In this document: piece after piece, positions 8,295-57,423 of the stretch
Position numbering within the stretch: position 1 is the stretch's first letter
Layout of the letters: every line of letters begins with the position of its first letter
Assembly: GCA_900539605.1 (NCBI GenBank)
Contig: UQCS01000005.1
Location: 10,564 to 74,563 of the forward strand
Source: an uncultured Azospirillum sp.
Lineage (GTDB): Bacteria; Pseudomonadota; Alphaproteobacteria; RF32; CAG-239
DNA: 64,000 nucleotides
Reading direction: 5' to 3'
Position numbers and translations under genes: made by a program
The notes under the pieces: model-generated
What the model was told of the DNA's origin: nothing
Databases searched by the model: none
What the model saw: the letters and a program-made list of their open reading frames with translations, nothing else

Positions 8295-9377
8295 ATGCAA
8301 AAATTTAAAAGATACAGTCGCGGCGGCAAAGAAGAAAATGCCGTTCGCAACTATGCCGCCATTGATTTGGGCACCAATTCGTGCCGCTTGGTTATTGCTT
8401 CTCCGACACCGACGTCTTTTCATATCATAGAAACTTTTTCCCGCATCACCCGTCTGGGGGAGGGAATTATCAAAGAAAACGAGTTGGGCAGAGAAGCAAC
8501 CCGGCGCACGATCAAGGCGTTGAAGATATGTTCGGAGATCATTAGCGAATATGCGCCGATTTTCCGGGCGCGTTTCGTGGCAACAGCGGCTTGCCGGCGA
8601 GCCAAAAACTGTAAGGACTTTTTGAGTGATGTCAAACGACAGACCGGCCTCAATTTGGAGATTATTTCTTCGCAGGAAGAGTCTCGTCTGGCGGTTATCG
8701 GCTGCATGCCGCTTTTGAAACGCAATGTTAAACGAGCGTTGGTTTTTGATATCGGTGGCGGTTCAACCGAAATTTCGCTGGCACGGCTGGCCAACAGCGG
8801 CAAGGCTTTTATTGAAGGTTTCGTGTCGCTGCCTTACGGTGTTGTTACGGTTTCCGAAGCTTTTCCCAACAAAGATATGACCAACCTGGCTTACAACACC
8901 ATTATGGATCGCACGCACAAACTGCTGGAAAGTTTTGAAGAGCGTTACAAAATCGGAGAGGCGATTGCCAACGGCGAAATTCAGGTTATCGGCACTTCGG
9001 GCACGGTGACGGTGCTGGGCGCAATTCAGCTGAATCTTCAGCATTATAACCGTTCGGCCGTAGACGGTATCAGCATTACCGCGCAGGATATGAAACATGC
9101 AGTTTCAAAAATCCGCCGCATGGGCGACGACGGGCGCAGAAAACATCCCTGTATCGGTCCGCAAAAAGCGGATTTGACTATTGCCGGTTGTGCCATTATC
9201 GAGGCAATTTGTTCTTTTTGGCCGGTGAAAGACGTGACGGTGGCTGATCGCGGTATTCGCGAAGGAATATTGCTGGATATGATGCATAATCGCAAAAAAA
9301 CGCGTCGCGGTTTTATGCGCCGTAATAAGAACAAAAGGATGAATAAAGATGAAAAAAACAGCTCTGGCAGCCATTGA
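8295..9377 (+). CDS. Ppx/GppA-family phosphatase, short form, paralog 1
   Basis: ASKHA-fold motifs AAIDLGTNSCRLVIA and FDIGGGSTEIS. No C-terminal HD-like domain. Basic C-terminal tail. Confidence 0.85.
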   Translation: MQKFKRYSRGGKEENAVRNYAAIDLGTNSCRLVIASPTPTSFHIIETFSRITRLGEGIIKENELGREATRRTIKALKICSEIISEYAPIFRARFVATAACRRAKNCKDFLSDVKRQTGLNLEIISSQEESRLAVIGCMPLLKRNVKRALVFDIGGGSTEISLARLANSGKAFIEGFVSLPYGVVTVSEAFPNKDMTNLAYNTIMDRTHKLLESFEERYKIGEAIANGEIQVIGTSGTVTVLGAIQLNLQHYNRSAVDGISITAQDMKHAVSKIRRMGDDGRRKHPCIGPQKADLTIAGCAIIEAICSFWPVKDVTVADRGIREGILLDMMHNRKKTRRGFMRRNKNKRMNKDEKNSSGSH

Positions 9378-12223: not shown

Positions 12224-12341
12224 AAAGGGCTTGTCGAGCGATTAAAAAATTTATTTTTGTGAAAAATTCACAATTATGTTAAAAAAAGCTTGATTATTTT
12301 TTCAAACCGGGGTATTTCTCCACTGTCTTTATGATATTTGC

Positions 12342-12427
12342 GCGCCTGTGGCGAAATTGGTAAACGCGTAACGTTGAGGTCGTTATGAGCTCTGCTCTTG
12401 GAAGTTCAAGTCTTCTCAGGCGCACCA
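12342..12427 (+). tRNA. tRNA-Leu (anticodon GAG), class II with long variable arm, CCA encoded
   Basis: Cloverleaf folded by hand: acceptor GCGCCTG/CAGGCGC, anticodon stem TAACG/CGTTA with loop TTGAGGT, variable hairpin GAGC-TCT-GCTC, T-arm GGAAG-TTCAAGT-CTTCT, 3' ACCA. Close to the E. coli tRNA-Leu layout. Confidence 0.92.
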
Positions 12428-12465
12428 ATCATAAAAAATGAAATTCCGATCATAAAGAGGAGGTT

Positions 12466-13905
12466 GTGATGAAGAAAAAAACAAAAAAGCACCAGCCTTT
12501 CTCGAAAAACAAAAACTTCCGTCATAAACAACTCAAACAGCAAAAAAATGCCGCCGATTATCTCGGTTTGGGGCCGAAGTTTGTCAATTCGATTATCATC
12601 GGACTGAACGAAGATGACGATATCCATGTCAAAAAAATTGTCGAAGGGCTAGACGAGTATGATCTTGCCCGCCTGATTGAGGTTTTGGATCTGCACCACC
12701 GGATGAAATTGGTTCGGATTCTCGGCGACAAAATTGATCCGGCCGTTTTTCCCGAATTAAACGAGGTCGTTCAGGAACAGGTTCTCGAAAGTTTAAACGA
12801 AAATCAGATTGTTAAAATCGTCAACGAACTCGATTCTGACGATGCCGTCGAGATTTTGGAGAATATGAACGACGAGGAACAGGAACAGATTATCAATCGT
12901 CTTGATCCGGAACTGAAATATCAGGTCAAATCGTCGCTCAATTATCCCGAAGATTCTGCCGGGCGTATCATGTCGCGTGATTTTGTGAGTATTCCTGACA
13001 GCTGGACGGTCAAGGAAGCCAAGCAATATCTGCTCACCAACGAAGAACTTCCGGATGATTTCTATACCATTTTTCTGGTTGACGAAAAAACGCTTAAACC
13101 CACCGGAGAAATTGCCTTAGACAAGCTGCTGCGTGCCAAGGCCGACGAAAAACTCGACAATGTCATGGACGGCGAAATCGTCCCGGTTGACGTTTACACT
13201 GATCAGGAAGAAGTAGCGCATATGTTTCGCGAATACGGCTGGATGTCGGCCATGGTGGTTGACAATAAGGGGCGTTTGATCGGCGTTATCAATATTGACG
13301 ACGTGGTTGAGATTGTTCACGAAGAAACCAACGAAGACATGATGCTGCTGACTGGTGCTGAAAGTAATGACGTGTACCGTTCGGTCTTCAGTATCTTCAA
13401 ATCGCGTTCGATCTGGTTGGTGACCAACCTGTTTGCCACCATTATTGCCGCTTCGGTGGTGGGCGAGTTTCAGGATATCATTGCCCAATTGTCGATTTTG
13501 GCGGTTTTGATGCCGATTGTCGCCTCAATGGGCGGCACCACCGGTCAACAAACTTTGGCGGTGGTGGTTCGTTCGCTGGCCACCAAAGAGCTGACTTCGC
13601 GCAATGCATTGAGAATGATCGGCAAAGAGTTCATGGTCGGCTTGTGCAACGGCCTCTTGTTTGCATTGATGATCGGAATTGCCGTGCGCATTTGGTTTCC
13701 CAGTCAGGAAACAATCAGTTACATCATTGCGTTGGCCATGTTGTGCAATCTGACGGTTGCCAGTTTGGCCGGGATCCTGATTCCGCTGACGATCAATCGT
13801 TTTAAAATTGATCCCGCGATCTCTTCGGGTGTTTTTCTGATTGCCTGTACTGATTCCGGCGGTTATTTTATTTTCCTCGGCCTGGCAAAGCTGCTGTTGT
13901 TTTAA
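12466..13905 (+). CDS. mgtE: Magnesium transporter MgtE
   Basis: N-domain, CBS pair and C-terminal five-helix MgtE membrane domain. SD AGAGGAGG upstream. Start is either GTG 12466 or ATG 12469. Confidence 0.9.
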   Translation: MMKKKTKKHQPFSKNKNFRHKQLKQQKNAADYLGLGPKFVNSIIIGLNEDDDIHVKKIVEGLDEYDLARLIEVLDLHHRMKLVRILGDKIDPAVFPELNEVVQEQVLESLNENQIVKIVNELDSDDAVEILENMNDEEQEQIINRLDPELKYQVKSSLNYPEDSAGRIMSRDFVSIPDSWTVKEAKQYLLTNEELPDDFYTIFLVDEKTLKPTGEIALDKLLRAKADEKLDNVMDGEIVPVDVYTDQEEVAHMFREYGWMSAMVVDNKGRLIGVINIDDVVEIVHEETNEDMMLLTGAESNDVYRSVFSIFKSRSIWLVTNLFATIIAASVVGEFQDIIAQLSILAVLMPIVASMGGTTGQQTLAVVVRSLATKELTSRNALRMIGKEFMVGLCNGLLFALMIGIAVRIWFPSQETISYIIALAMLCNLTVASLAGILIPLTINRFKIDPAISSGVFLIACTDSGGYFIFLGLAKLLLF

Positions 13906-19088: not shown

Positions 19089-20921
19089 ATGTCTATCCGC
19101 ATTCTGCCCAATAATCTGGTCAATCAGATTGCCGCCGGCGAAGTTATTGAACGTCCGGCTTCGGTGGTTAAAGAGTTGGTTGAAAACTCTATTGACGCCG
19201 GTGCAACCTCAATAGAAATAACTTTGGTGGACGGCGGAAAATCGCTGATTGCGGTCAGCGACAACGGCAAAGGCATGGATAAAGAAGACTTAAATTTGGC
19301 GGTGGAAAGGCATGCCACGTCAAAGCTCCCGGACGATGATTTGTTTCATATCAACTATCTCGGGTTTCGCGGCGAGGCCTTGCCGTCAATTTCGTCCGTG
19401 GCGCGGCTGAGCATAGTGTCGCGAACCCGGGAGGCGGAAAACGGATGGAGGCTTGAAGTCAACGGCGGGGTCAGACAGGAAGCGGTTCCTTCGGCGTCCG
19501 CAATCGGTACCAGAATCGAAGTCAGAGACTTGTTCTATGCCACGCCGGCACGGCTCAAGTTTCTGAAAACCGGCAGCAGCGAAACCGCCCAGTGTATTGA
19601 CATGGTTAATCGGATTGCTATGGCCAACCCGCAGGTGTCTTTTTATCTGATGGATGATCAAAAGAAAAAAATCAGTCTCAACGCGTGTCAGGGGGAATTG
19701 TTCGATGCCCGCCTGAAACGTCTCAGCGATGTGATGGGGCGGGAGTTTGGCGAAAATGCGCTGCTGATTGATGCGGCACGCGACAATATCCGCATCAGTG
19801 GCTACGTCAGTCTGCCGACTTTTAACAAAGCCAACTCGCTTTCTCAATATTTGTTTGTGAACGACCGGCCGGTGCGTGATAAATTGCTTCTTGGCGCAAT
19901 CAGGGGGGCATATCAGGGAGTGCTGGAAAACGGACGTTATCCGGTTTGCGCGCTTTTCTTTGATGTCAACCCCGATTATGTTGACGTCAATGTTCATCCG
20001 GCTAAAGCCGAAGTTCGTTTTTTTGACAATGCATCTGTTCGTGATTTGTTGGTAAGCGCGATTCGTAATGTTTTGGCTGCCGGCAGTCGGCAGACCGCGG
20101 CACCGCTCAATCTGGAGAATTTTTTGCAAGACAGTCTGGAGGCTTCGGCGGCGGCCGTATCTTCTACCACAGAAAATGAAATGGTGTTTTTGAACGATTA
20201 TGGCGTAGCGGTGTCGCCGGCACGTTTGCAAATGCCTTTGCCTTCGCGCGCGCCGAGAACAGGTTCGTTGCCGGAATTGGAACGACGTTTTTCGGTGCGA
20301 GCCGAAGAAGTATCTTTCTCTGAATCTGTCCCCGAAACCGACGGTGTTCTGGGACAGGCCAAGGCTCAGTTTCATAATACCTATATCATTTCTCAAACTG
20401 CCGACAGTATTATATTAATTGACCAGCACGCTGCCCATGAACGCATTGTGATGGAGAAAATGAAAAAAGTGCTGACGGAAGGAAGAAAGCCAGCCACTCA
20501 GATGTTATTGATTCCCGAAATTGTGGAATTGAATCTGCCGGATAAACAACGCCTGCTGGAAAATGCTGCCGGTCTGTCCGACTTGGGACTGGTGATTGAA
20601 GAATTTGGCCCGGCAGCGGTGATTGTCCGGGAGATTCCGGCCCTGATTAAAGATTGTGACGTGCGCCGCCTGGTCAATGATCTGGCCGAGCAAATTGCCG
20701 AATGGGGAACCGATTTTGCTCTTGAAGATAAGCTTAACCACATTTGTGCCACCATCGCCTGTCACGGTTCAGTACGGGCAGGGCGAAGTCTTAATCTGGC
20801 GGAAATGAATCATTTGCTGCGTGAAATGGAAAAGACACCTAACGCTGGTCAGTGCAACCACGGCCGTCCGACATATATCGAATTGAAAATAAAGGATATT
20901 GATAAGCTGTTTCATCGCTGA
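19089..20921 (+). CDS. mutL: DNA mismatch repair protein MutL (endonuclease type)
   Basis: GHKL ATPase N-terminus (IAAGEVIERPASVVKELVENSIDAG). C-terminal DQHAAHERIVME fits DQHA-x2-E-x4-E. ATG at 19089 preferred over TTG at 19083. Confidence 0.93.
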   Translation: MSIRILPNNLVNQIAAGEVIERPASVVKELVENSIDAGATSIEITLVDGGKSLIAVSDNGKGMDKEDLNLAVERHATSKLPDDDLFHINYLGFRGEALPSISSVARLSIVSRTREAENGWRLEVNGGVRQEAVPSASAIGTRIEVRDLFYATPARLKFLKTGSSETAQCIDMVNRIAMANPQVSFYLMDDQKKKISLNACQGELFDARLKRLSDVMGREFGENALLIDAARDNIRISGYVSLPTFNKANSLSQYLFVNDRPVRDKLLLGAIRGAYQGVLENGRYPVCALFFDVNPDYVDVNVHPAKAEVRFFDNASVRDLLVSAIRNVLAAGSRQTAAPLNLENFLQDSLEASAAAVSSTTENEMVFLNDYGVAVSPARLQMPLPSRAPRTGSLPELERRFSVRAEEVSFSESVPETDGVLGQAKAQFHNTYIISQTADSIILIDQHAAHERIVMEKMKKVLTEGRKPATQMLLIPEIVELNLPDKQRLLENAAGLSDLGLVIEEFGPAAVIVREIPALIKDCDVRRLVNDLAEQIAEWGTDFALEDKLNHICATIACHGSVRAGRSLNLAEMNHLLREMEKTPNAGQCNHGRPTYIELKIKDIDKLFHR

Positions 20922-23942: not shown

Positions 23943-23970
23943 GATCCCCTTAATATTGATTATGCGGAAA
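23943..23970 (-). other. dif-like 28-mer (conserved XerC-arm and spacer, degenerate XerD arm), copy 1
   Basis: The - strand reads TTTCCGCATAA-TCAATA-TTAAGGGGATC. It shares the 16-mer CGCATAATCAATATTA with the candidate dif at 35689-35704. Confidence 0.45.
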
Positions 23971-24097: not shown

Positions 24098-24182
24098 AGG
24101 ACTGTTTGACTGTCTCCGGCCCTTTCGGGTTCGATTCTCTTAATATTGATTATGCGGAAAGTTTGGAGCGGGTAACGGGAAT
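24098..24182. repeat. 85-bp direct repeat, copy 2 (abuts and overlaps the 3' end of the intact tRNA-Gly)
   Basis: See copy 1. A 9-bp inverted repeat GTCAAACAG/CTGTTTGAC straddles its left boundary (24084-24110). Confidence 0.9.
24133..24160 (-). other. dif-like 28-mer, copy 2, 3 nt downstream of the tRNA-Gly CCA end
   Basis: The - strand reads TTTCCGCATAA-TCAATA-TTAAGAGAATC, with the same 16-mer as the candidate dif. Confidence 0.45.
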
Positions 24183-24237
24183 CGAACCCGCATTAAAAGC
24201 TTGGGAAGCTCTCATTCTACCATTGAATTATACCCGC
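24164..24237 (-). tRNA. tRNA-Gly (anticodon CCC), CCA encoded
   Basis: Hand fold of the reverse complement: acceptor GCGGGTA/TACCCGC, anticodon stem AGAGC/GCTTT with loop TTCCCAA, T-arm GCGGG-TTCGATT-CCCGT, discriminator T, CCA. Confidence 0.92.
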
Positions 24238-24392
24238 AAAAGGTATTTCTGTTATATTATGATCTCGGCAAAAATCAATAAAAAAATGAAGGGCAGGGAT
24301 AATATTTTCCCCATTGATGAATTATTTCTTTGAAAAATGGTATCGGAGATCTTATAAAGTTATTGAATATAATTTTGATTCAGGAGAAAGTA

Positions 24393-32602: not shown

Positions 32603-34834
32603 ATGCAGGAAATCGAAGAAAAAATTAAAGATGTCCAACTGGCCGAAGAATTGAGCAAAAGATATCTTTCTTATGCCATGTCCACAATTGTTTCCCGGTC
32701 GCTTCCGGATGTTCGCGACGGCTTAAAACCGGTACACCGCCGGCTTTTGTATGCCATGCGGCAATTGCACCTCGACCCGAAGTCGGGTTTCAAAAAATGT
32801 GCCCGTGTCGTCGGCGATGTAATCGGTAAATATCACCCTCACGGTGACAGTGCTGTTTACGGCGCAATGGTACGCCTGGCACAAGACTTTTCAGTCCGTT
32901 ATCCGCTGGTGGACGGGCAGGGCAATTTTGGCAATATCGATGGTGACGGCGCAGCGGCAATGCGTTATACCGAGGCTCGGTTGACTGAATTTGCCATTGC
33001 GATGATGGAAGGTCTTAATGATAATGCCGTCGATTTCATGGAGACTTATGATGGTGAGGAAAGCGAACCGGTCGTTATGCCTTCTATGGTTCCGAATTTG
33101 CTGTGTAACGGATCGGCCGGCATTGCCGTCGGAATGGCTACCAATATCCCGCCGCACAATCTGAGCGAAGTCAGTGATGCCCTGTTATATCTGATTGATA
33201 ATCCCGATTGTGAGATTGAACCCCTGGTAAAAAGAATTAAAGGTCCCGATTTTCCGACCGGTGGTTTTATCATTGATAAATTTGAGAGTATTTTGGACAC
33301 TTATCGTCAGGGGAAGGGTGTATTTCGTATCCGTGCCAAATGGGAAAAAGAAGATCTCGGTCATGGCCAGTATCAGATTGTTATTACCGAAATTCCTTAT
33401 ATGGTGCAAAAAGCCAAACTGATTGAAAAGATTGCCGCTTTATTGCTGGAACGCAAGGTTCCGTTGCTAAATGACGTCCGGGATGAGTCCACCCATGATA
33501 TCCGAATTGTGCTGGAGCCCAAAAGTCGTCTCGTTGACGCCAACTTGCTGATGGAACATCTGTTTAAACAAACTGAGTTGGAAAGCCGCTTTAACCTTAA
33601 TATGAACGTTCTTGATTCTGACGGGGTTCCGCGGGTAATGTCCATCAAGGAAGTTTTGCGCGAGTTCTTAAATCATCGTCATATTGTCTTGATTCGTCGC
33701 GTTAATTACCGGCTTGAAAAAATAAACTACCGGTTGGAAATTTTGAGCGGTTATCTGGTCGCTTATCTTAATTTGGATCGCATTATTCAAATTATCCGCG
33801 AAGAAGACGAACCTAAAGCGGTTATGATGAAAGAGTTTGCTTTGACAGACAATCAATCGGAAGCTATTTTGAACATGAAACTCCGTTCTCTGCGCAAGCT
33901 GGAGGAAAGTCAAATTCGCGAAGAATACGATGATCTTTCGAATGAAAAGTCTGGATTGGAGGAACTACTCGGCAACGAAGATAAACGTTGGCAGGCGATT
34001 GCTGGCGAAATCAGGCAAATGAAGGAAAAATTTGGCAAGAAAACGGCTCTGGGGCGTCGTCGTACCGAGTTCTCCGAAGTTTCCGAAGAAATAGAAGTTC
34101 CGCTTGAGGTCCTGATTGAAAAAGAGCCGATTACAGTTATTCTGTCACAAAAAGGCTGGATACGCAGTCTTAAAGGGTATGCCAACCTGAATGATGAATT
34201 TAAATTCAAAGATGACGATGCCTTGCAGTTTGCCATCCATGCCCAAACCACCGACAAAATCGTGATTATGGACAGTTCCGGTAAGTTCTTTAATATTGCG
34301 GCCAACGAAATTCCGAGCGGTCGCGGGTTCGGACAACCGTTGCGCCTGATGATTGATATCGCCAACAATGACGAAGTGGTGTCTATGTTTGTTTTTGAGC
34401 CTAAAGTTTCCTATCTGATTGCCTCCAAACGCGGATACGGTTTTGTTGTTGACGAAAATCATTTGATCGCTCAAACCCGCAACGGACGGAAGATTATGAA
34501 TGTTTCCGATGGTGATGCAACGATGTTCTGTCTGAAAGTTGATGGTGATATGGTTGCCGTTGTCGGTGACAATCGCAAGCTGTTGGTATTCAAAGCCGAA
34601 GAAATTCCGACCATGGCGCGCGGGCGGGGCGTTTGTCTGCAAAAATATAAAGACGGCGGCTTGTCGGATATCCAATTCTTTAACGAAGCAAATGGTTTCA
34701 GCTTCAATCGTTCTGGCGGTGTCAGCACTGAAAAAGAATTGCTCACTTGGCTGGGACACCGGGCACAAATCGGTAAGTTGGTTCCGTTCGGTTTTCCAAA
34801 AAACAATAAATTTTTCAACCAAAACAATACTTAG
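32603..34834 (+). CDS. parC: DNA topoisomerase IV subunit A
   Basis: [25 protein letters not shown] and the AAMRYTE active-site Tyr. Length of 743 aa and a ParC-type C-terminal domain. Confidence 0.9.
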
Positions 34835-34880
34835 AAGACACTATAAAAGGTAAAGGGTTAAAAGATGCCCCGCGAAAGCA

Positions 34881-35060
34881 GGGTTGTCTTGATGCTTTAC
34901 AGACAACCCCCATTTTAATGGGGGTGAATGCTAAAATAGCGTTAGACACCGCTCCACGCCAGCGATTGTGGTCAAACCGCCAGGTTTGTAGCTGCTATAA
35001 TCCCCCAGTTTACGGGGGATATCTATTGTATCCTGACCCCGCTGCACCTGGGGCCTTTTA
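34881..35060. other. Cluster of GC-rich hairpins in an otherwise AT-rich ORF-free gap (candidate structured RNA or element remnant)
   Basis: Stems GGGTTGTCT/AGACAACCC (34881-34909), CCCCCA/TGGGGG (34907-24), ATCCCCC/GGGGGAT (35000-20) and CCCC/GGGG (35037-53), the last followed by CCTTTT. Confidence 0.35.
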
Positions 35061-35684
35061 GCCTCTGGCTTGCATGCAAAAGAATTTTATCAAATGAATA
35101 TGCACACAATATCCACATCCGTTGAAATTATAAAGATTATGTTGTCATTGGGCCGAGACGTTGTTTGAGTGGGTGTTGCGAAAGAAAAGACAATTTAGAG
35201 AAGGGTATTGTATTGTCATAATACCCTTGAGATGCCTTCAGTCTTCTGGAACATTTACGGGGCTTGACCTTCAGCAGCAAAACAGAGACGTTCTGTTTTA
35301 TTTTTATGATGGGCTGCAACATTCAGATGTTTAGAGCATAAAGAAACGGCTCATCCAAAGATTCTCTTGATAAACTTATTAATATGAGCTGTATGAGTTG
35401 GGTACTTGATAATCTTTCCGAGTTGGCAATCACATTTTTGTAGACGGGTGTCCGGATGTAATACAAAGCAGAGATGTTCTAAGGTGTACGAAAGAGCCTT
35501 GTTTTTTTCCGGGCTTTTGGCGCCCCAAATATCTAAGTGTAATTGTTCTATAAAATTATGCAGTTAGAGGCGTTTCTAACTGTCTGGACGTCATACCAGA
35601 CAAAATATAACAAAAAAGCACAAAACTACAATACGTTACTGTGATGGGTTAAAGCTAAAAAACACTAACTGTATAATTACACAT

Positions 35685-35712
35685 TTGTCGCATAATCAAT
35701 ATTATGTATAGT
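35685..35712 (+). other. Candidate chromosome dimer resolution site dif (XerC/XerD)
   Basis: TTGTCGCATAA-TCAATA-TTATGTATAGT matches 19 of 28 positions of E. coli dif GGTGCGCATAATGTATATTATGTTAAAT, including GCATAA-N6-TTATGT. It sits in the gap between convergent genes where CDS strand bias flips. Confidence 0.6.
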
Positions 35713-36010
35713 AATGAGCATAAGAAAGCATAAGGTTAATCGTATTTAATGCATTGAAATCAAGTCATTTTATTAGTTTAAATGTTATTATTTCGCCCCG
35801 GACAAACATGGAACGCAATGAGCAAGTTATTTTGCTTTAAGTCTGCACCAGCAGTTGATAAAAGATTGGTCGATTTTTTCAGGCGTTTGCTTTATATTTT
35901 AATTAACAATAGCTTCGTTGATTGTTAGCTCCGATTGTGATCGTCGATTTGTTTTCAACGCCACCGCGTTCGGAATTATTTTTTATCTCACAATTCCGAT
36001 TTATTCACGC

Positions 36011-37597
36011 CTATAAGGCAGCAGCGATCAATTTCTTGGTATAATCTTGCTGAGGATGTTCAAATATATCTTCACAACTGCCAATTTCGACCGCCTGGCC
36101 GTCTTTCATTACCAGAATCTGATCGGACATTGCGCGAACCGCATTCATGTCATGAGATATAAAGATATAACTCAAATTCCGTTTTTCTTGGATTTCTTGT
36201 AGCAATTTTATGATTTGTGCCTGGATTGTAACGTCAAGCGCGGACGTTGGCTCATCCAAGATCAACAATTGCGGTTTCAGAATCAAGGCACGTGCAATTG
36301 CAATTCTTTGTCGTTGACCGCCGGAGAATTCATGCGGATACTTAACCAAATCGCTTTCGGACAATCCGGTCTCTTCAAGAGTTTCAATCACCATTTTCCG
36401 TCTTTCGACTTTACTTATTTCGGGATAATGAACCGAAACGCCTTCTCCGACAATCTCTTCAATGTTCATCCGCGGGTTGAGAGAATTGTACGGATCTTGA
36501 AAAACCACCTGAATATCCTTACATAGCTTTTGACGCTCTTTAGATGTAAGTGATTGTATTTCAATATTTTTGAATAATATCTTCCCCTGGTACCTGTTCA
36601 ATCCGGCAATGGCGGAACCAAGGGTTGTTTTCCCCGAGCCGGACTCTCCGACGATCCCCAGGGTTGTTCCTTTGGCCAGAGAAAAAGAAACATTATCAAC
36701 TGCATTGAGTTGTTCCAGTACCCTTCCCCACAAGTTCTTCTTCAAGGGAAAAGTTACTTTGATTTTTTCGGCTTGCAGCAGAATATCATTACTTTTTTTA
36801 TTGTTTTTCTGCAGCATATGGGCATTAATCAAATCTTTGGTATAAGAATGACGCGGATGTTCAAAAACCTGTTTTATCAAACCCTGTTCAATGATCTTCC
36901 CATTTTTCATCACCATGACACGATCGGCGATTTTACGGATCACAGTCAGGTCGTGACTGATGAAAATGATAGCCATATTCAGCTTTTCTTTGAGTTCAAT
37001 CAACAAATTAATAATTTGTTCCTGAACTGTTACATCAAGTGCGGTTGTCGGTTCATCGGCAATCAGAATATCCGGTTTATTGGCAATAGCCATTGCAATC
37101 ATCACTCGCTGTCTTTGACCGCCGGAAAGTTCAAAAGGATAAGATTTCATCCGTTTTTCGGCATTTTGAATTCCGGTTATTTTCAGTAATCGCAAAACTT
37201 CTTTTCGAGCTTGTTTGAAAGTAAGTTTTTGATGCAGCATCAGGCTTTCTGCAATTTGTTTTTCAATGCTATGCAACGGATTGAGAGAAGACATCGGTTC
37301 CTGAAAAATATAGGCAATCCGGTTGCCGCGAATTTGCCGGAACCTCTTGTCGTCTAAACCGATCAATTCCGTCCCTTCAAATTTTATTGAAGAAGCTTCT
37401 TCATGAAACGCTTTCGGATAAGGCAACAGCCCGAGCACAGCCAACGAGGTCACAGATTTCCCCGAACCGGACTCTCCGACAATTCCCAAGACTTCTCCGG
37501 CTTGCAGCTCAAAAGAGACATCATCCGTCGCTGTTTTGGAAAGATTACCGTCTTGAGCAAATTTTACGGTCAGATTTTTGACTTCCAGTATGCTCAT
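36011..37597 (-). CDS. yejF: ABC transporter ATP-binding protein, fused double ATPase (YejF type)
   Basis: Two Walker A sites (GESGSGKS and GESGSGKT), two LSGGQRQR signatures and 528 aa length. Confidence 0.88.
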   Translation of the reverse strand: MSILEVKNLTVKFAQDGNLSKTATDDVSFELQAGEVLGIVGESGSGKSVTSLAVLGLLPYPKAFHEEASSIKFEGTELIGLDDKRFRQIRGNRIAYIFQEPMSSLNPLHSIEKQIAESLMLHQKLTFKQARKEVLRLLKITGIQNAEKRMKSYPFELSGGQRQRVMIAMAIANKPDILIADEPTTALDVTVQEQIINLLIELKEKLNMAIIFISHDLTVIRKIADRVMVMKNGKIIEQGLIKQVFEHPRHSYTKDLINAHMLQKNNKKSNDILLQAEKIKVTFPLKKNLWGRVLEQLNAVDNVSFSLAKGTTLGIVGESGSGKTTLGSAIAGLNRYQGKILFKNIEIQSLTSKERQKLCKDIQVVFQDPYNSLNPRMNIEEIVGEGVSVHYPEISKVERRKMVIETLEETGLSESDLVKYPHEFSGGQRQRIAIARALILKPQLLILDEPTSALDVTIQAQIIKLLQEIQEKRNLSYIFISHDMNAVRAMSDQILVMKDGQAVEIGSCEDIFEHPQQDYTKKLIAAAL

Positions 37598-38655
37598 CGA
37601 CGGTTTTTCCTTGTATCCAAAGCGTCGCGAACCCCTTCACCAATAAAAATCAGCAATGTCAGTAAAAGCGACAAAACCACAAAAATAGAAATTCCGATCC
37701 ACGGCGCCTGCAGATTATCTTTTCCTTGCCGAACCAGATCGCCCAGCGACGGATATTCGTGAGAAAGTCCCAAACCGAGAAAATCAAGTGCCGTTAAAGA
37801 AACGATGGCTTCCGATATCAGAAACGGAATAAATGTTACCGCGGCAACCAGAGCGTTTGGCAGAATATGACGCCAAATAATCTGCCAGTTACTGACCCCC
37901 AGTACCCGCGCCGCTTTTACAAATTCGAAATTGCGCGTCCGCATAAATTCGGCACGCACCATGCCGGTCAAAGAAGTCCAGGAAAAGAAAAGCAATATCA
38001 ACAGCAAAGTTCCGAAACTGGGAAGAAAAATGCTGGAAACAATAATTAAAATGAACAGTTGCGGCAAAGAGTCCCAGATCTCTATGAAACGTTGCATAAA
38101 AATATCCAACTTGCCGCCGAAATATCCCTGGATCGCACCGACGGTTATTCCGATTGCCGAAGATATCAGCGTCAGCACAAAAGCAAAAAACAATGACAGC
38201 CGCAGCCCATATAAGATACGCGCAAAAATATCACGCCCCTCGTCATCTGTTCCCAGCCAGTGGCGCCGTGAAGGTGCAGCCGGAGTTGGCTGATTCATCT
38301 CCATATCCACCGTATTAAAAGAAAACGGTACCGGCGGCATCAGCATCCAGCCGTGTTGTTCGATATTACGACGCAGATAAGGATCGGCGAAATCGGCCAG
38401 CGTGGGAAAATCGCCCCCGAAATCGATATCCCGATAGTTTTGTACTAACGGAAAATACCACTGATCCCGATACTTGACAATCAACGGGCGGTCATTGGCC
38501 AAAAGTTCCGCCAACAAGCTCAGCAAGACGATGACGGCCAGCAAAACAAGTGACCACCAAGCACGGCGGTTTTGCTTAAAAATCCGCCATTTTCTGATTG
38601 TCAATGGTGACAACGCGCTGTTTGTTCCCCTATTCTGCAGCAACAGATCCCTCAC
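37594..38655 (-). CDS. yejE: ABC transporter permease YejE (peptide/microcin-type, OppC/DppC class)
   Basis: Collinear by eye with E. coli YejE (NRRAWWSL, WLGTDDEGRDIFARILYG, VRAEFMRTRNFEFVKAARVLG, LQAPWIG). 4-nt overlap with yejF. Confidence 0.88.
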   Translation of the reverse strand: MRDLLLQNRGTNSALSPLTIRKWRIFKQNRRAWWSLVLLAVIVLLSLLAELLANDRPLIVKYRDQWYFPLVQNYRDIDFGGDFPTLADFADPYLRRNIEQHGWMLMPPVPFSFNTVDMEMNQPTPAAPSRRHWLGTDDEGRDIFARILYGLRLSLFFAFVLTLISSAIGITVGAIQGYFGGKLDIFMQRFIEIWDSLPQLFILIIVSSIFLPSFGTLLLILLFFSWTSLTGMVRAEFMRTRNFEFVKAARVLGVSNWQIIWRHILPNALVAAVTFIPFLISEAIVSLTALDFLGLGLSHEYPSLGDLVRQGKDNLQAPWIGISIFVVLSLLLTLLIFIGEGVRDALDTRKNRR

Positions 38656-40714
38656 TTGCTGCGCCGGACAAAGACTCTACTTTTGCTTCGGCGCCGACCT
38701 TAATTTCTCCGCTCATAATCTTTTGTGAGCCGATGTTTTTTTCTTCCAACGGCATCAGCGGCGACGTCGGGACGGCTTGCGGCTGTCCGATACCTTTATT
38801 ATTTCGGTTACCGGACGCCTGTAATGGCGATTTTACCGGCGTGCGATAATTGATTCGGTTCCATTCTTTAAACCATCGATTAAATTCTTGCAAAGACTTT
38901 TGAGCGCTGTCATTGGTGTACTTAACTGTATCGACGGCGGCTTTTACTGCTTTTTTGGTGGTTTTGGAAAGTTTGGTCCGTCCAAACTCGCTGCATTTGG
39001 GACCGTTTTCAAATAAGTTGTTCAAAATTTCCTCAATCGGACAAATTGAACGGTTAATGACCAGTTGTTTGTTGCCGGGTGTCTTGACCGCCAAGGCAAC
39101 CAGTTGCCCGTTGCGAAAACGTTCGGACAAATCCTGATTGGGAGTTCCGATCAAATCGTCCATTCCCGCCAGTCCTTCGATAACAACCGTCGTGTCGGCC
39201 GCGTCCGGAAGCTTGCGAATTGCCTGCATAACTTTTTCCAACTGACCGAACAGGCACATTGTTTGTCTCAAATAGGCATTGCGTTTTTCCATCAGGTTGC
39301 GGCTGTCCACCCAGGGGTGGTTCAGTTTGGGCAACCATTCCGCGGTAGGTTTCAGCCGGCACATATCATCATAAATATACATGTCGGACGGCAGGTCGAG
39401 ATACAAGAAATAAGCATTGTTTCCTTTATCTTCCGCCAGATCGTCCAGCATCATGTCGATGCTTTTGAAAGAATTGACCACATACAGCTTGTTATAACTA
39501 AAACCGATCATCGGCGTTTTAGAAGGATTGTAAAAAGGTTTCAGATAACCGTAAAGTTTTTCCATCATTGCTTCATTTTTGAACCAACCGGTACTCTCAA
39601 GCCATTGAACCAACAGAATTTGAATCTTGTCGCCGGCGGTCATCGGCACTCCATCAAGATTCAACGGCGTGTTAACTTTGGTCACGCAACGGTCAACCGC
39701 AACCTGATTGTCTTTTTTGCAAAGGTTGACGCCGTGCGACTGATAAGCGCTGATTTTATAACCTTTTTGTTTTAATTTGTCATAAACGGTGTTGTTCTGC
39801 AGATAAGCTTCAAAATTTTCGCGGTTTTTAAACTGCCAATAACCGTTTTTCAGTACCTGATTTTGTAAAAAGTCAATTTCTTCGCCGTTGCCGTAATTCA
39901 AATTGCGGGCAGCATTGATAAACTGGTTATTGTTGGTGACATAGGCGTTCGGGTACAGTCGAAAACCGTTTTTGGCATAAAATCCGAGCATGATTTTCAA
40001 CAATTGATCCCGGTAAATCAGAGCGGCATCGGTGTTCTTTAAACTGCTTACATAGTTATATGACGGCAGGTTGGCAACCATAATCGTTACTGTTTTTTTC
40101 GACGGAACTTGTTCTTCAGCCACAGCCGGCACGGATATCATATCCGGATTGACGGTAAATTCGCTTCTATCCTTATTTTGATTAATCAGTACGGCGCCGA
40201 AACAGAAAACCGCCGTCATAACCACCAGAGCTTTGATTCTTTTGGGTGTCAGTGCCAACAAGGCAAACATAATCACCGCAACAATCACCGCGGCAAAAGT
40301 TTCGGAACGTCCGCTGGACAGGTTCTCGGCGTTAAAGTTGGCAAATTGGTTAAACATTGCCAAGGTGAACAAGCCGGAAACCAGTGCCGTCAGCAAATAA
40401 AGGATAATGCTCAAAAAAGAAAGACAGAAAAACAGCAAGATCACGCCGGCGGCAATGGCTATCAGAATATAAAGAGCTTCCGGTCTCAGGCTGCTTGGTC
40501 CGCTGAAAATATTGATCGGCCCTGAAGACGCAAATAAAACAAAATCAATTCCCAAAAGAGAGATCGTGATCAGACAGCAGGCGGCAAAATTAAACAAATA
40601 GTTTAAAAAACCGCTGTTTTTACGTTTCTTCTTGACCGCTCTGCCCTGTGCAGCCGGCGGGGTTGCTTCGGTATGTTTATCCAATATAACGTCATCCATT
40701 AGCCTGTTCCTCAT
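38630..40714 (-). CDS. Large hypothetical membrane protein (about 5 N-terminal TM helices plus a roughly 480-aa extracytoplasmic domain)
   Basis: The topology resembles membrane-anchored alkaline-phosphatase/sulfatase-superfamily transferases, but I could not find their catalytic motifs. The 3' end overlaps the yejE start by 26 nt. Confidence 0.6.
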   Translation of the reverse strand: MRNRLMDDVILDKHTEATPPAAQGRAVKKKRKNSGFLNYLFNFAACCLITISLLGIDFVLFASSGPINIFSGPSSLRPEALYILIAIAAGVILLFFCLSFLSIILYLLTALVSGLFTLAMFNQFANFNAENLSSGRSETFAAVIVAVIMFALLALTPKRIKALVVMTAVFCFGAVLINQNKDRSEFTVNPDMISVPAVAEEQVPSKKTVTIMVANLPSYNYVSSLKNTDAALIYRDQLLKIMLGFYAKNGFRLYPNAYVTNNNQFINAARNLNYGNGEEIDFLQNQVLKNGYWQFKNRENFEAYLQNNTVYDKLKQKGYKISAYQSHGVNLCKKDNQVAVDRCVTKVNTPLNLDGVPMTAGDKIQILLVQWLESTGWFKNEAMMEKLYGYLKPFYNPSKTPMIGFSYNKLYVVNSFKSIDMMLDDLAEDKGNNAYFLYLDLPSDMYIYDDMCRLKPTAEWLPKLNHPWVDSRNLMEKRNAYLRQTMCLFGQLEKVMQAIRKLPDAADTTVVIEGLAGMDDLIGTPNQDLSERFRNGQLVALAVKTPGNKQLVINRSICPIEEILNNLFENGPKCSEFGRTKLSKTTKKAVKAAVDTVKYTNDSAQKSLQEFNRWFKEWNRINYRTPVKSPLQASGNRNNKGIGQPQAVPTSPLMPLEEKNIGSQKIMSGEIKVGAEAKVESLSGAASEGSVAAE

Positions 40715-49855: not shown

Positions 49856-51937
49856 ATGCGGCCGTCATTTTTATATCCGTTGTTTGCTTCACCTTCATCA
49901 ATTCGGGGGGTCGGCGACAAATATCTCGGACTTTTGCACAACCTCGGGATCGACCGGATCACCGACCTGCTCTGGCATCTGCCGTACACCTGTAACGACC
50001 GGCGACGTTCTTCCTCGGTAGCCAATTTGAAAAACGGCGAAATAAATACCGTAAAGATTCGGGTTGTGGAACACTTAGCCCCCAAGAGCCGCAAACAGCC
50101 TTATCAGGTTTTATGCGAAGATGACAGCGGACAAATCACTCTGGTCTTTTTCAAAGCTTATCCCGATTCTATCCAAAAGAACCTGCCGCTTGGCGCCGAA
50201 CGGGTCATCAGCGGCAAAGTTGAACTTTTTAATGGTCGCTGGCAAATGAGCCACCCCGATTATATTGCCGCGCCCGAAAACAGCCGGCAGATTCCCGAAA
50301 TTGAACCGGTTTACGGTCTCACGGCCGGCATTACCAACAAATTTATCAGCCGGCTGATATACAATGCCCTGCCCCTGATTCCGGCTTTGCCGGAATGGCT
50401 GGAATCCAACCATATGAAAACGCTCGGTTTTCCGGCTTTCAAAACCGCATTGCAACAGGTTCACCATCCTGATGGCACCGTGGCTTTACTGCCGTCTTCT
50501 CCGGCACGGATGCGGCTGGCTTATGACGAACTGCTCGCCAACCAGCTGTCACTGGCTCTGGTACGTGCCAAAGTCAAGAAGCAGCCGGGACGCCAAATTG
50601 CCGGCAACGGATTGTTGCGCCGCAAAGTTTTAGACCACTTGCCATTTAAACTGACCGCTGCGCAACAAAAAGTTCTTGCCGAAATATCGGCCGATCAGGC
50701 GGCAGCAAGCCGAATGCTGCGGCTGCTTCAGGGAGATGTCGGCAGCGGCAAAACAATCGTCGCGCTTTTAACCATGCTCAATGCGGTTGAATGCGGTTAT
50801 CAGGCAGCCATCATGGCACCGACAGAAATTCTGGCCAAACAGCATTTTGACACTATTGCACCCTTATGTGAAGAAGCGGGATTGAAAGCAGCCTTGCTTA
50901 CCGGCCGCATAAAAGGAAAATCGCGCACTTTGCTGTTAGAACAATTGCAACAGGGGAAAATCAATATTTTGATCGGCACCCATGCGTTGTTTGTCGAAGA
51001 TGTTGTTTTTAACGATCTTGCCTGTGTCGTGATAGACGAGCAACACCGTTTCGGCGTTCATCAGCGTTTGAACTTGTCCGCCAAAGGCAACCGCGCCGAC
51101 GTGTTGGTGATGACGGCAACGCCAATTCCACGGACGCTGATCCTCACCGCATTCGGTGATATGGAATACTCGAAAATTGACCAACTTCCGGAAGGACGAA
51201 AGCCGGTAGACACCCGGGTAATACCGTTAACGCGGATTGATGAGATTATTCCGGCCTTGCAGCGTAAAATCGCTGCCGGCGAGAGAGTTTACTGGGTGTG
51301 TCCGTTGGTCGAAGAATCCGAAAAGCTTGATCTTGCCGCTGCCGAAAATCGTTTTGAAATCTTGCAAAAAACTTTTGGCGCCGATGTCGGGTTGGTTCAC
51401 GGCAAAATGAAAGAAAAGCAAAAAGATGAAATTATGGAACGTTTCAAAAACGGCGAAATCAAATTGCTGGTGGCAACCACCGTTATTGAAGTCGGCGTCA
51501 ATGTGCCGGAAGCTACGGTGATGATTATCGAACATGCCGAACGCTTCGGTCTTGCCCAGCTTCACCAGCTGCGCGGCCGGGTTAAACGCGGCTGCCGGCC
51601 CGCCATCTGTATTTTGTTGTACGGCTATCCGCTGGGGGCAACTTCTCGTGCGCGCCTCAACATTATGCGCGACACCGAAGACGGCTTTGCGATCGCCGAA
51701 GAAGACTTAAAACTGCGCGGCGGCGGCGAAATCCTCGGAACCCGCCAATCGGGTTGCGAAAACTTCAAGTTGGCGCAAATGCCTGAACATCAAAATCTGT
51801 TAATTACAGCCAATAAAGACGCCCGAATGATTCTTGCCGCCGATCCCGAACTGACCTCGCCCCGCGGACAAGCCTTGCGTACCCTGCTTTATTTGTTCGA
51901 ACGCGATGATGCGGTCAAAACTTATCTGGCGGGATAA
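49856..51937 (+). CDS. recG: ATP-dependent DNA helicase RecG
   Basis: Wedge (OB) domain, then the helicase motifs GDVGSGKT, DEQHRFGV and QLHQLRGRV. Confidence 0.95.
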   Translation: MRPSFLYPLFASPSSIRGVGDKYLGLLHNLGIDRITDLLWHLPYTCNDRRRSSSVANLKNGEINTVKIRVVEHLAPKSRKQPYQVLCEDDSGQITLVFFKAYPDSIQKNLPLGAERVISGKVELFNGRWQMSHPDYIAAPENSRQIPEIEPVYGLTAGITNKFISRLIYNALPLIPALPEWLESNHMKTLGFPAFKTALQQVHHPDGTVALLPSSPARMRLAYDELLANQLSLALVRAKVKKQPGRQIAGNGLLRRKVLDHLPFKLTAAQQKVLAEISADQAAASRMLRLLQGDVGSGKTIVALLTMLNAVECGYQAAIMAPTEILAKQHFDTIAPLCEEAGLKAALLTGRIKGKSRTLLLEQLQQGKINILIGTHALFVEDVVFNDLACVVIDEQHRFGVHQRLNLSAKGNRADVLVMTATPIPRTLILTAFGDMEYSKIDQLPEGRKPVDTRVIPLTRIDEIIPALQRKIAAGERVYWVCPLVEESEKLDLAAAENRFEILQKTFGADVGLVHGKMKEKQKDEIMERFKNGEIKLLVATTVIEVGVNVPEATVMIIEHAERFGLAQLHQLRGRVKRGCRPAICILLYGYPLGATSRARLNIMRDTEDGFAIAEEDLKLRGGGEILGTRQSGCENFKLAQMPEHQNLLITANKDARMILAADPELTSPRGQALRTLLYLFERDDAVKTYLAG

Positions 51938-55590: not shown

Positions 55591-57423
55591 TCATTCGATA
55601 TTTTTTTCAGCCAGCAGGAGAGCACGCTCTTTTTTCAACATTTGATAGCGTTGATAAACTTCCTCGGGAAACGACTCGGCAGTTTCAATCCGGCGCCGAC
55701 AATCGCATATTTCATTGTCAAGCTGCTTCAGCTGCATTTCTAAAATCGTATTGTCAATATCGCGGCGCAGCTTGCGCAAATCGGGATTTTGCTGCCGAAT
55801 CATCTGAACCTGCCACAAAGCGTCAATATAACGGGAAAAGCCTTCCTCTTTCAAAGCCTGATACAAAGCGGAACTCTCCGTCGGCTCATGTTGATGATAA
55901 ACTTCCGCCATTTTTTCCAACAGCAGCCGTAGGCTTTCGTCCCCGATTTCAAACATTCCGGCCTTTTCCTCATATTCGCCGATCAGACACGGATAACAAA
56001 ACATAGCGGCGGCAATAAACTTGGCGACCATCTCGTCCAACGTAATTTTAACCGGCTGCGGTTTGGCGGTATTGTTACGGACTGAAGCATTTTTGCGTTT
56101 TGCCGCATTAACAAAGCTTCGTTTTTCGTCCCCGTTTTCCGGACGCGCAACAACAACCGGTCGAAAACGTGCATAAATACGGCTTTTCATGTCTTGCAAA
56201 TAATAGCCGCGCACTTTTTCGTCGGTAATTTTGGACACTTCTTCCAAAAGCGTTTTCTCAAACAGCGCTTTCTGCTCCGGAGTTTCGTCCGGAACAGATT
56301 CGACATTTTTGCGCCATAACAAATCTGCCAACGGCACTGTATTTTGCAGAGCGTTTTCATATTCTTCCGCCCCTTTGGCACGCAGGAACTCGTCCGGATC
56401 CATCTTGTCGGGCAAAAAGACATATTTGAGCGAATAACCGGCTTTCAAAATCGGCAATACCCGATCAATTGAACGCGTCGCAGCATGAACACCGGCATTG
56501 TCGCCGTCAAAACACAAAGTTGGTTCGGGGCAGATTTTCCAAGCTTCGGTAATTTGTTCCTCGGTCAGTGCGGTTCCGAGCGGCGCTACCGCATATTCAA
56601 AACCGTATTTTGCCTGGGCAATCACATCCATATATCCTTCGCAGACAACAATCCGCCGTTTTTCAAACGCCTTATCGCGCGCATAATTCAAGTTGTAGAG
56701 CACTCGCCGTTTGTTAAAAATCGGCGTATCCGGCGAATTCAGATACTTGGGCTGGCCGTCTCCCATCACCCGTCCGCCGAAAGCGATCACCCTTCCCCGT
56801 TTGTCCATGATCGGAATAATGACACGATCGCGGAAAAAGTCGTAGATTTTGCCATTTTTTTCCGACAATACAGCCAACCCCAGCTCAATCATATCGCTTT
56901 CGCTGACATTCCTCGAAGCCAGCCAGGCTCTCAATCCGTTATTGTCCGGCGCGTAACCGAGACGAAATTTCTTAATGATGTTTTCGTCAAATCCACGCCG
57001 TTCCAAATAGGCCATCGCCGCTTTTCCGCCGGTCAGACGCAGATTTTTTTCAAAATAGGCAGCCGCCATTTCAGTAATTTCATACCATGAACTGCGTTTT
57101 TGGACTTCTTCGGGATTCTCACGACTGATTTGCGGCACTCTCAAACCGGCTTTGTTAGCCAATTTGGTTACCGCATCAATAAAAGGTAGTCCGTTGGCAT
57201 CCATTTCGAATTTGATGATGTCTCCATGGGCGCCGCAACCGAAACAATGATAAAACCCTTTGGCTTCGTTCACGGTAAAAGACGGCGTTTTTTCATTGTG
57301 AAAAGGACACAGTCCCATATATTCCTTACCCTTGCGGACAAGCTTAACCTTGGCGCCGACGACATCGGCCACCGAGATCCGGGAACGCAGTTCATCCAAA
57401 AATTTCTGAAAGTCGGTTTCCAT
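55591..57423 (-). CDS. dnaG: DNA primase
   Basis: Zinc finger CPFHNEKTPSF..HCFGCGAHGD and TOPRIM (VVCEGYMDV). Confidence 0.95.
   Translation of the reverse strand: METDFQKFLDELRSRISVADVVGAKVKLVRKGKEYMGLCPFHNEKTPSFTVNEAKGFYHCFGCGAHGDIIKFEMDANGLPFIDAVTKLANKAGLRVPQISRENPEEVQKRSSWYEITEMAAAYFEKNLRLTGGKAAMAYLERRGFDENIIKKFRLGYAPDNNGLRAWLASRNVSESDMIELGLAVLSEKNGKIYDFFRDRVIIPIMDKRGRVIAFGGRVMGDGQPKYLNSPDTPIFNKRRVLYNLNYARDKAFEKRRIVVCEGYMDVIAQAKYGFEYAVAPLGTALTEEQITEAWKICPEPTLCFDGDNAGVHAATRSIDRVLPILKAGYSLKYVFLPDKMDPDEFLRAKGAEEYENALQNTVPLADLLWRKNVESVPDETPEQKALFEKTLLEEVSKITDEKVRGYYLQDMKSRIYARFRPVVVARPENGDEKRSFVNAAKRKNASVRNNTAKPQPVKITLDEMVAKFIAAAMFCYPCLIGEYEEKAGMFEIGDESLRLLLEKMAEVYHQHEPTESSALYQALKEEGFSRYIDALWQVQMIRQQNPDLRKLRRDIDNTILEMQLKQLDNEICDCRRRIETAESFPEEVYQRYQMLKKERALLLAEKNIE

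Follow-up and report, generated by a model that had tools for sequence, protein, structure and literature searches.

The dif site, at which XerC and XerD resolve chromosome dimers, has arms that are conserved and a centre that is constant within a species and variable between species; the A at its position 25 is highly conserved, with chromosome 1 of Rhodobacter sphaeroides carrying a T instead (Carnoy & Roten 2009, PMC2731167). Mobile elements have been found to use the same site. Integration of an Escherichia coli gokushovirus at dif depends on XerC/XerD, as was shown experimentally (Kirchberger & Ochman 2020, PMC7062461); TLCphi of Vibrio cholerae exploits Xer with an attP that binds XerD poorly (PMC9226527, PMC6744903); and integration via XerCD has been proposed for the NO16-like non-tailed vibriophages (‘Asemoviridae’), which possess dif-like sites (PMC9966536). 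In the Legionellales, the dif site was found through the integration of a mobile element (PMC9765430). Here, we describe a 28-bp sequence in a 64,000-nucleotide stretch of DNA from an uncultured Azospirillum sp. (GenBank contig UQCS01000005.1; the whole stretch is hereafter the window). Positions 35685-35712 of the window are very probably the chromosomal dif site of this uncultured gut alphaproteobacterium, located at the junction of its two replichores. As a dif of the conventional proteobacterial type, it belongs to a familiar class of feature, one that had not been annotated in this lineage before.

Results

A 28-mer resembling published dif sites

The + strand of the window reads TTGTCGCATAATCAATATTATGTATAGT at positions 35685-35712. 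This 28-mer had been singled out as dif-like in a first-pass annotation made from the letters of the window, and its sequence, its coordinates and its 11-6-11 layout are exact. The left arm, TTGTCGCATAA, spans positions 35685-35695, the right arm, TTATGTATAGT, spans positions 35702-35712, and between them lies the central region, or spacer, TCAATA (35696-35701), the strand-exchange region, which differs between species. The 28-mer is situated in a gap between the convergent genes parC and a yejF-like gene, and it occurs once in the window. Its annotation as dif (35685-35712, + strand) draws on a matrix of published dif sites, on conservation across species, and on its use as an insertion point by phages.

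The matrix, a position weight matrix, was derived from the 48 proteobacterial dif sites printed in Table 1 of PMC2731167. The 28-mer ranked first in the window, scoring 23.1 bits in the + orientation and 14.3 bits in reverse, with the next unrelated 28-mer at 8.5 bits. The maxima of shuffled windows were 9.9 ± 2.8 bits, the highest was 18.0 bits, and none of the 100 shuffles attained 23.1 bits, a score that falls inside the range of the training sites (6.0-41.1 bits) and below their median (31.7 bits). The first-pass annotation had instead relied on identity to E. coli dif; its count of 19 of 28 positions is right and unsurpassed elsewhere in the window, yet first-order Markov shuffles of the window reach 19 or more in 40% of cases, and the match is not significant on its own. 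The inner palindrome GCATAA-N6-TTATGT, which the same annotation had pointed out, fared better: it occurs once, against 0.005 occurrences expected per window.

Among the published sites, the best single match is that of Bordetella pertussis (22/28), and the site of R. sphaeroides chromosome 1, GAGTCGGATAATCTGTATTATGTATTCT, is identical at 21 of 28 positions, one of these being the uncommon T of position 25. The left arm resembles the alphaproteobacterial XerC arms nnnTCGCATAA (PMC2731167, Table 1), while the right arm matches published XerD arms such as TTATGTAAAGT and TTATGTATTCT at 9-10 of 11 positions. Based on the higher score in the + orientation (23.1 versus 14.3 bits) and on the resemblance to Rhizobiales and Rhodobacter sites, the left arm would be the XerC arm and the right arm the XerD arm; this assignment, made by homology from the sequence only, is not airtight.

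Could an AT-rich palindrome of this kind have arisen by chance, or serve as a promoter or an operator? The chance-level identity to E. coli dif would be in keeping with such an origin, as would the fit of the 28-mer to a weak sigma-70 pattern (TTGTCG-16-TATAGT, 9/12). The matrix score is nonetheless above that of all shuffles, and no + strand gene lies downstream of the 28-mer that a promoter could drive.

Strand asymmetries that switch at the site

The window is core chromosome, with pgi, mutL, recO, parC, rpsD, recJ, mfd, recG, rpoD and dnaG present. Leftward of the gap its GC skew is +0.075 and rightward -0.080, the sign being kept across 35 kb and 28 kb, respectively. The cumulative GC-skew maximum and the change-point of a two-segment likelihood model coincide at position 35951, and the 2-log support interval (35476-36346) contains the 28-mer. 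Gene strands, as listed by a crude open reading frame (ORF) caller, are divided in the same manner, with 24 of 29 genes to the left on the + strand and 18 of 22 genes to the right on the - strand; the strand bias claimed in the first pass (26 of 32 and 17 of 23) is upheld with these slightly different counts.

A flip of gene orientation at the very place where the skew flips is what would be seen if the latter were brought about by convergent transcription, by a local inversion or by an assembly join, and the 28-mer were a bystander. We therefore separated the contribution of gene strand from that of chromosomal side. At third codon positions, the + strand skew of five minus-strand genes at left is +0.18 and that of four plus-strand genes at right is -0.17; intergenic DNA has a skew of +0.10 at left and -0.06 at right. 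As both third-position and intergenic skew follow the side and not the gene strand, the skew is of the replication type rather than a by-product of convergent transcription.

A second asymmetry concerns the FtsK orienting polar sequences (KOPS). Of GGGNAGGG, the E. coli-type motif that the FtsK of this lineage is presumed to recognise, all eight instances in the window point toward the site and none points away. Five lie on the + strand in the left replichore (8457-8464, 20776-20783, 24291-24298, 32915-32922 and 33311-33318) and three on the - strand in the right replichore (36721-36728, 50367-50374 and 56790-56797).

Invariant arms and variable spacers in related species

The relatives of the window's ParC among GTDB species representatives are all metagenome-assembled genomes (MAGs) of uncultured gut Alphaproteobacteria, with record names that include ‘Azospirillum sp. 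51_20’, ‘Proteobacteria bacterium CAG:495’ and ‘Candidatus Scatocola’, labels which we take to belong to the GTDB order RF32. We compared the 12 closest species with enough flanking sequence, the ParC proteins of which are 82-99% identical to that of the window. In these species, a site with the same arms is found 370-1725 bp downstream of parC, or 9.2 kb downstream in the one locus, L009, in which an insertion has intervened. The right arm TTATGTATAGT is invariant in 13/13 host sites, that is, in the window and all 12 relatives; the left arm TTGTCGCATAA is invariant in 10 of the 12 relatives and bears one substitution in the other two. The spacer takes seven forms (TCAATA, TCTATA, TGTACG, TGTATA, TCTATC, TTTATA and TATGTA). 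The flanks of the site are unalignable except in the two nearest species, with some 30 bp at the site conserved across species. Near-invariant arms around a variable spacer in 13 host sites constitute the conservation pattern that was described for dif (PMC2731167). The site is single at each related locus save for phage-derived copies.

The asymmetries recur together with the site. Of the 12 related loci, 11 switch from + to - skew at the site, or 12 of 13 with the window included. In the window and 11 related loci taken together, GGGNAGGG is directed toward the site in 46 instances and away from it in one, against 9.8 and 5.6 expected from strand-specific dinucleotide composition. Loci with full flanks provided a negative control: the +/- switch past parC is present in seven of nine loci with the site and in one of 34 without it (Fisher p 8.5e-6), which demonstrates that the skew switch follows the site, not parC. 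The sole site-less locus with a +/- switch past parC, L060, may hold a divergent site. Each check proposed in the first pass that could be run locally, namely the position of the skew extremum, the polarity of KOPS-like oligomers and the alignment with related dif sites, came out in favour of the dif interpretation.

Relative to parC, the site has the opposite orientation in three species (L017 at 12563, L019 at 12973 and L029 at 12563); L019 and L029 keep the change in skew sign, and L017 displays a drop only. In E. coli, dif functions independently of its orientation, and the inverted sites fit this behaviour.

These comparisons also bear on the possibility, raised above, of a chance palindrome, promoter or operator beside a skew flip of other origin. 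The layout of the window is reproduced in independent assemblies (contigs L002 and L006 are 100% identical to it over 12.2 kb), and L010, from another species, is collinear with the window across the site; the neighbours differ between species and the site is inverted in three, and still the arms are invariant; and the skew switch accompanies the site in the control loci. Together with the matrix score and the side-dependent skew, these observations render that explanation scarcely credible and argue for dif.

Microviruses integrated exactly at the 28-mer

Contigs encoding a ParC identical to that of the window fall into two classes, those with an empty site and those with foreign DNA after the 28-mer. 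The empty site, attB, is represented by the window, L002 and L006, the latter two being 100% identical to the window across the gap. In L001, L003 and L004, the sequence is 100% identical to the window through position 35712, the final base of the 28-mer, and then continues as microvirus DNA (attL); L005 ends at its position 13110, which corresponds to window position 35712. The foreign DNA encodes a replication initiator (phrog_942), a major capsid protein (phrog_514, 611 bits) and a DNA pilot protein (phrog_8689). The opposite junction, attR, is contained in L007 and L008, which originate from the same two samples as the left-junction contigs. They read phage-ATGACTCATAA-TCAATA-TTATGTATAGT-host, with the host sequence resuming at 35713 and identity to the window starting at 35691. 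The prophage is accordingly flanked by a 22-bp direct repeat, CATAATCAATATTATGTATAGT, with the intact host site on its left and a hybrid site on its right, in which the left arm differs at 3/11 positions and the spacer TCAATA is unchanged. Strand exchange falls within the shared 22 bp CATAATCAATATTATGTATAGT.

The integrated element, a microvirus of ~4.4 kb, is represented by positions 13111-17336 of L001 and L003, 11764-15977 of L004, 11886-12103 of L007 and 6779-6974 of L008. As no contig covers its last few hundred bases, where L003 and L004 stop and L007 and L008 start, its size and gene content were taken from a free relative (L090-L096) that shares 93% identity with the prophage across 4028 bp, and from the complete prophage of locus L015 described below. 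The free relative was reached via a capsid protein search in Logan and JGI contigs; its capsid protein is 98% identical (P0001), and it occurs on 4440-bp contigs that are circular permutations of each other with 30-bp terminal overlaps, which defines a circular genome of 4410 bp with seven genes (Rep, capsid, pilot and small ORFs). Neither this genome nor the complete 4.43-kb L015 prophage encodes an integrase. The attP of the free relative, AAGACTCATAA-TCAAGA-TTATGTATAGT, lies in a non-coding stretch upstream of Rep; the host spacer is TCAATA. Searched by exact match, IMG/VR did not contain the phage flank, nor did JGI metagenome contigs contain the predicted attP junction (0 matches each), which is probably uninformative because the host contigs derive from ENA human-gut assemblies; the relatives of the capsid protein in IMG/VR amounted to one distant fragment only. 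Positions 17306-22232 of L001 were left out as a probable chimeric join: this segment, which carries PadR, helix-turn-helix (HTH) and ABC genes, has a G+C content of 60%, the host's being 45% and the phage's 41%, and departs from L003 and L004 inside the phage.

With attB, attL and attR all observed, along with the matching attP of a relative, there is natural, if indirect, evidence that site-specific recombination occurs at exactly this 28-mer, since phages that encode no integrase and possess a matching attP have integrated precisely there in sister strains. The breaking of contigs at the final base of the 28-mer or within the end of the phage suggests that phage-carrying and phage-free chromosomes, or variants of the phage, coexist in the samples.

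The empty and occupied states speak to a further alternative, in which the 28-mer would be a leftover hybrid scar (attL- or attR-like) of a past insertion and the functional dif would reside elsewhere. Integrations do leave dif-like copies behind, as in attR of L007 and L008 and in the 24/28 and 20/28 copies at L015 and L009 described below, and a 16-mer resembling a half site is present close to a tRNA-Gly gene of the window. The site in the empty state is, however, single and perfect, the phage-derived copies being the degenerate ones; it is this perfect copy that is conserved across 12 species at the skew switch; and no other 28-mer of the window scores above 8.5 bits. We regard a scar as highly improbable and retain the 28-mer itself as dif.

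Further elements at dif and the matching of spacers

A second microvirus lineage, the capsid protein of which is 70% identical to that of the first, occupies the dif of a different species as a complete 4.43-kb prophage (L015, 13050-17481). Here, the intact site is found at 13022 and a 24/28 copy at 17454, with only microvirus genes in between. Free genomes that are 70% identical (L098 and L099) carry TAGTCG(C/T)ATAC-TCTAT(A/C)-TTATGTATAGT on the strand opposite to their genes, so that the orientation of attP relative to the genes is reversed between the two microvirus lineages. The right arm TTATGTATAGT is invariant in all microvirus attP sites found.

A third element, PM2-like and 8.3 kb in length, lies between a half site and a full site in L009 (13170-21463). 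It encodes a PM2-type P2 coat domain, a HerA/DUF87-type ATPase, an HTH/DnaD-like protein, a tail-collar protein and a cell-wall hydrolase; no recombinase domain was detected in its ten largest ORFs. The two junctions share CACACAC-TTGTCGCATAA-TCTATA-TT, the copy of the site matches at 20/28 positions, and the element-derived half is devoid of a recognisable right arm (TTTATCGGAGA, 4/11). From these junctions, the attP of the element would comprise a perfect XerC-type arm and the spacer, with the XerD-type arm missing.

Like integrative mobile elements exploiting Xer (IMEX), these elements have no integrase of their own, possess a dif-like attP, and are integrated at dif between direct dif-like repeats. 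That three unrelated integrase-less elements mimic different halves of one 28-mer is as expected of elements that exploit Xer.

The phage insertions are the most direct evidence of recombination at the 28-mer, and, as no Xer proteins were observed by a strict motif screen of the window and 1.68 Mb of parC loci, one may ask whether the 28-mer is only a phage attB for another recombinase, its position at the skew switch being coincidental. We consider this very unlikely. No integrase was detected in any of the three elements, the PM2-like one being judged by its ten largest ORFs, so that the recombinase at work must come from the host, and the elements imitate different halves of the 28-mer in the way of known Xer-exploiting elements; the match to the matrix of published dif sites is far above chance; the 28-mer lies within the interval of the skew change-point and at the convergence of KOPS; and its arms are conserved in 12 species with or without phage. 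A dimer-resolution site that phages have come to use remains our interpretation.

The spacers were compared among the window (35696-35701), L009-L019, L029, L056, L098 and L099. They differ even among hosts with 99% identical ParC (TCAATA, TCTATA and TGTACG), and the attP spacers match those of hosts: TCAATA that of the window's species, TCTATA those of several species, and TCTATC, found in phage L098, that of L016. We tentatively propose, while thinking it somewhat doubtful, that dif in this group of uncultured gut Alphaproteobacteria is a common landing pad, used by three or more independent viruses without an integrase (two microvirus lineages and one PM2-like element), and that the spacer may decide which host can be lysogenised. 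If the spacer does decide the host, it may be diversifying under phage pressure.

The gap and other features of the window

The gene-free gap that holds the GC-skew switch extends over positions 34835-36010 (1176 bp, 38.6% G+C), and the 28-mer starts 851 bp beyond the stop of parC and lies 298 bp ahead of the stop of the convergent yejF-like gene. The final gene of the left replichore is parC, for topoisomerase IV subunit A (32603-34834, + strand; TIGR01062 parC_Gneg, 900 bits). That of the right replichore encodes an ABC transporter ATPase (36011-37597, - strand), which we call yejF-like because its NF011713 score of 661 bits is below the 834-bit cut-off of the model. The convergence of these genes on 1176 bp that hold no credible ORF, as stated in the first-pass annotation, is borne out: the ORFs within the gap are only 40-61 aa long, and independent gene calls on the identical metagenome contig L002 place no gene there. 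Its suggestion that decayed DNA accumulates at this place is not; a tblastx and blastn comparison with the three inserts identified no relic of inserted elements or pseudogene in the gap beyond the site itself, and what the gap contains is the site and a hairpin-rich repeat of ~140 nt. Rfam searches of the gap, at the gathering threshold and at E<=1, yielded nothing credible, the sole match being STnc560 at E=0.82.

The ~140-nt repeated element (34884-35030, + strand) is positioned inside the gap, just downstream of parC, and is not part of dif. It comprises two GC-rich hairpins and a conserved core, with copies in L011 (two), L013 (partial), MT839539 and MT838190. The last two are faecal ‘Bacteriophage sp.’ records that have nothing else in common with the window; the matches of the gap in the phage database were examined as a possible phage relic, which was rejected as they occur only through the ~140-nt repeat. 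Among five sequences, 5/34 base pairs are compensatory, too few to judge covariation, and no Rfam family corresponds to the element, which could be a small RNA or a repeat of the repetitive extragenic palindrome (REP) or miniature inverted-repeat transposable element (MITE) kind.

In L014, L015 and L016, a 230-aa ORF is present between parC and dif (~12239-12931), with a GFSQG serine-hydrolase-type motif recognised by eye; as a tblastn query against the gap, it left no trace in the window. In the operon of the yejF-like ABC transporter, a 694-aa ORF (38630-40714, - strand) occupies the position of a substrate-binding or second permease gene, and returned no NCBIfam or Pfam match.

Away from the gap, the last 19 nt of tRNA-Gly(CCC) (24164-24237) and ~60 nt that follow are duplicated 190 bp downstream, in the manner of an att scar, and three copies are present in L010. 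This repeat was found by eye; Tandem Repeats Finder returned no rows for it. Each copy holds TTTCCGCATAATCAATATTAAG (window 23943-23970 and 24133-24160, - strand), which shares 16 contiguous bases with dif (left-arm core and spacer) and shows no co-variation with the dif spacer of each genome.

Discussion

Taken together, the matrix match, the conservation of the arms, the strand asymmetries and the phage junctions converge on positions 35685-35712 as dif. Several observations weigh against this reading. Identity to E. coli dif is at chance level (40% of window shuffles reach 19/28) and was discarded as a test. The 28-mer possesses a T at position 25, where A is highly conserved (PMC2731167), and in reverse it agrees with three published sites, as printed, at 20-21 of 28 positions. 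In L017, the skew at the site falls from 0.20 to 0.07 with its sign unchanged. For the pooled KOPS polarity, p is about 2e-8, a value that is optimistic as some instances are shared by descent and the loci are partly non-independent. Neither the window nor 1.68 Mb of parC loci yielded a xerC, xerD or ftsK gene, in screens that used a strict motif and for genes that need not sit close to dif; likewise, a Pfam search with ten large ORFs of the window revealed no tyrosine recombinase or FtsK. Finally, the relatives are all MAG contigs of at most about 300 kb, and the skew extremum is a local one, within a 64-kb window; we infer that the local switch is the global terminus of the replicon.

The mechanism that we envisage is taken from the established model for E. 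coli, Vibrio and Caulobacter, by analogy with which XerC, XerD and FtsK would be the proteins acting at the 28-mer. XerC would bind the left arm TTGTCGCATAA and XerD the right arm TTATGTATAGT. When sister chromosomes are joined as a dimer, FtsK anchored at the septum would read the oriented GGGNAGGG motifs and translocate toward the site at division. It would then activate XerD, and the recombinases would swap strands across the 6-bp spacer, one added crossover converting the dimer into two monomers. Phages would rely on these enzymes for inserting the double-stranded replicative form of their genomes.

Identifying dif would locate the terminus, and with it both replichores, in a lineage with neither a cultured member nor a closed genome, a routine but useful annotation. 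It can be employed in the scaffolding of MAGs, in reading coverage-based estimates of growth rate, and in checks of assemblies, as contigs break exactly at the site where phage-carrying and phage-free cells coexist. The insertions, apart from validating the site, link ~4.4-kb circular gut microviruses, as well as a PM2-like element, to one particular uncultured host, with both phage junctions known to base level and the attP matched in a close free relative. Gut microviruses chronically lack assigned hosts, a gap for which insertions flanked by dif provide an easy remedy; should dif indeed be a shared landing pad, otherwise hostless tiny gut microviruses would gain a concrete host.

Relative to described systems, the locus shares with the E. 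coli dif/XerC-XerD/FtsK-KOPS system the 28-bp, 11-6-11 layout with partly palindromic inner arms (GCATAA...TTATGT), the intergenic location at the GC-skew switch, and the polarisation of GGGNAGGG toward the site from both sides. It differs in that the 28-mer is 19/28 identical to E. coli dif, with divergence at the outer arm positions and in the spacer. Closer to hand are the alphaproteobacterial dif sites (PMC2731167): the left arm nnnTCGCATAA is of the Rhizobiales type and the right arm starts with TTATGTA as theirs do, while the lineage of uncultured gut Alphaproteobacteria is a new one, with an arm variant of its own (TTGTCGCATAA / TTATGTATAGT).

The insertions, too, have described counterparts. 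Gokushovirus EC6098 and its relatives (PMC7062461) are likewise integrase-less microviruses, of 4.3-4.7 kb, with attP in a short non-coding region, and their integration likewise leaves the bacterial dif intact on one side and a phage-derived dif-like copy on the other. The phage copy of EC6098 varies chiefly in the spacer and the XerD arm, whereas those of the microviruses in the window's species retain a perfect right (XerD-type) arm, together with a spacer that matches the host's, and depart from the host site at 3/11 positions of the left (XerC-type) arm. The host here is an alphaproteobacterium, the capsids are only distantly related, and the role of XerCD is proposed by analogy. In having an attP without an XerD-type arm, the L009 element recalls TLCphi; the latter is a satellite filamentous phage and the former is PM2-like, resembling double-jelly-roll viruses, and no XafT-like activator was identified in the L009 element. 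It also resembles the NO16-like phages, small tailless prophages with double-jelly-roll capsids and no integrase, and differs from them in host class and gene content. Finally, the logic by which an element flanked by dif-like repeats exposes the dimer-resolution site of its host is that of the Legionellales work (PMC9765430); the Legionellales system had been thought absent and is atypical, whereas the site described here is a conventional proteobacterial dif.

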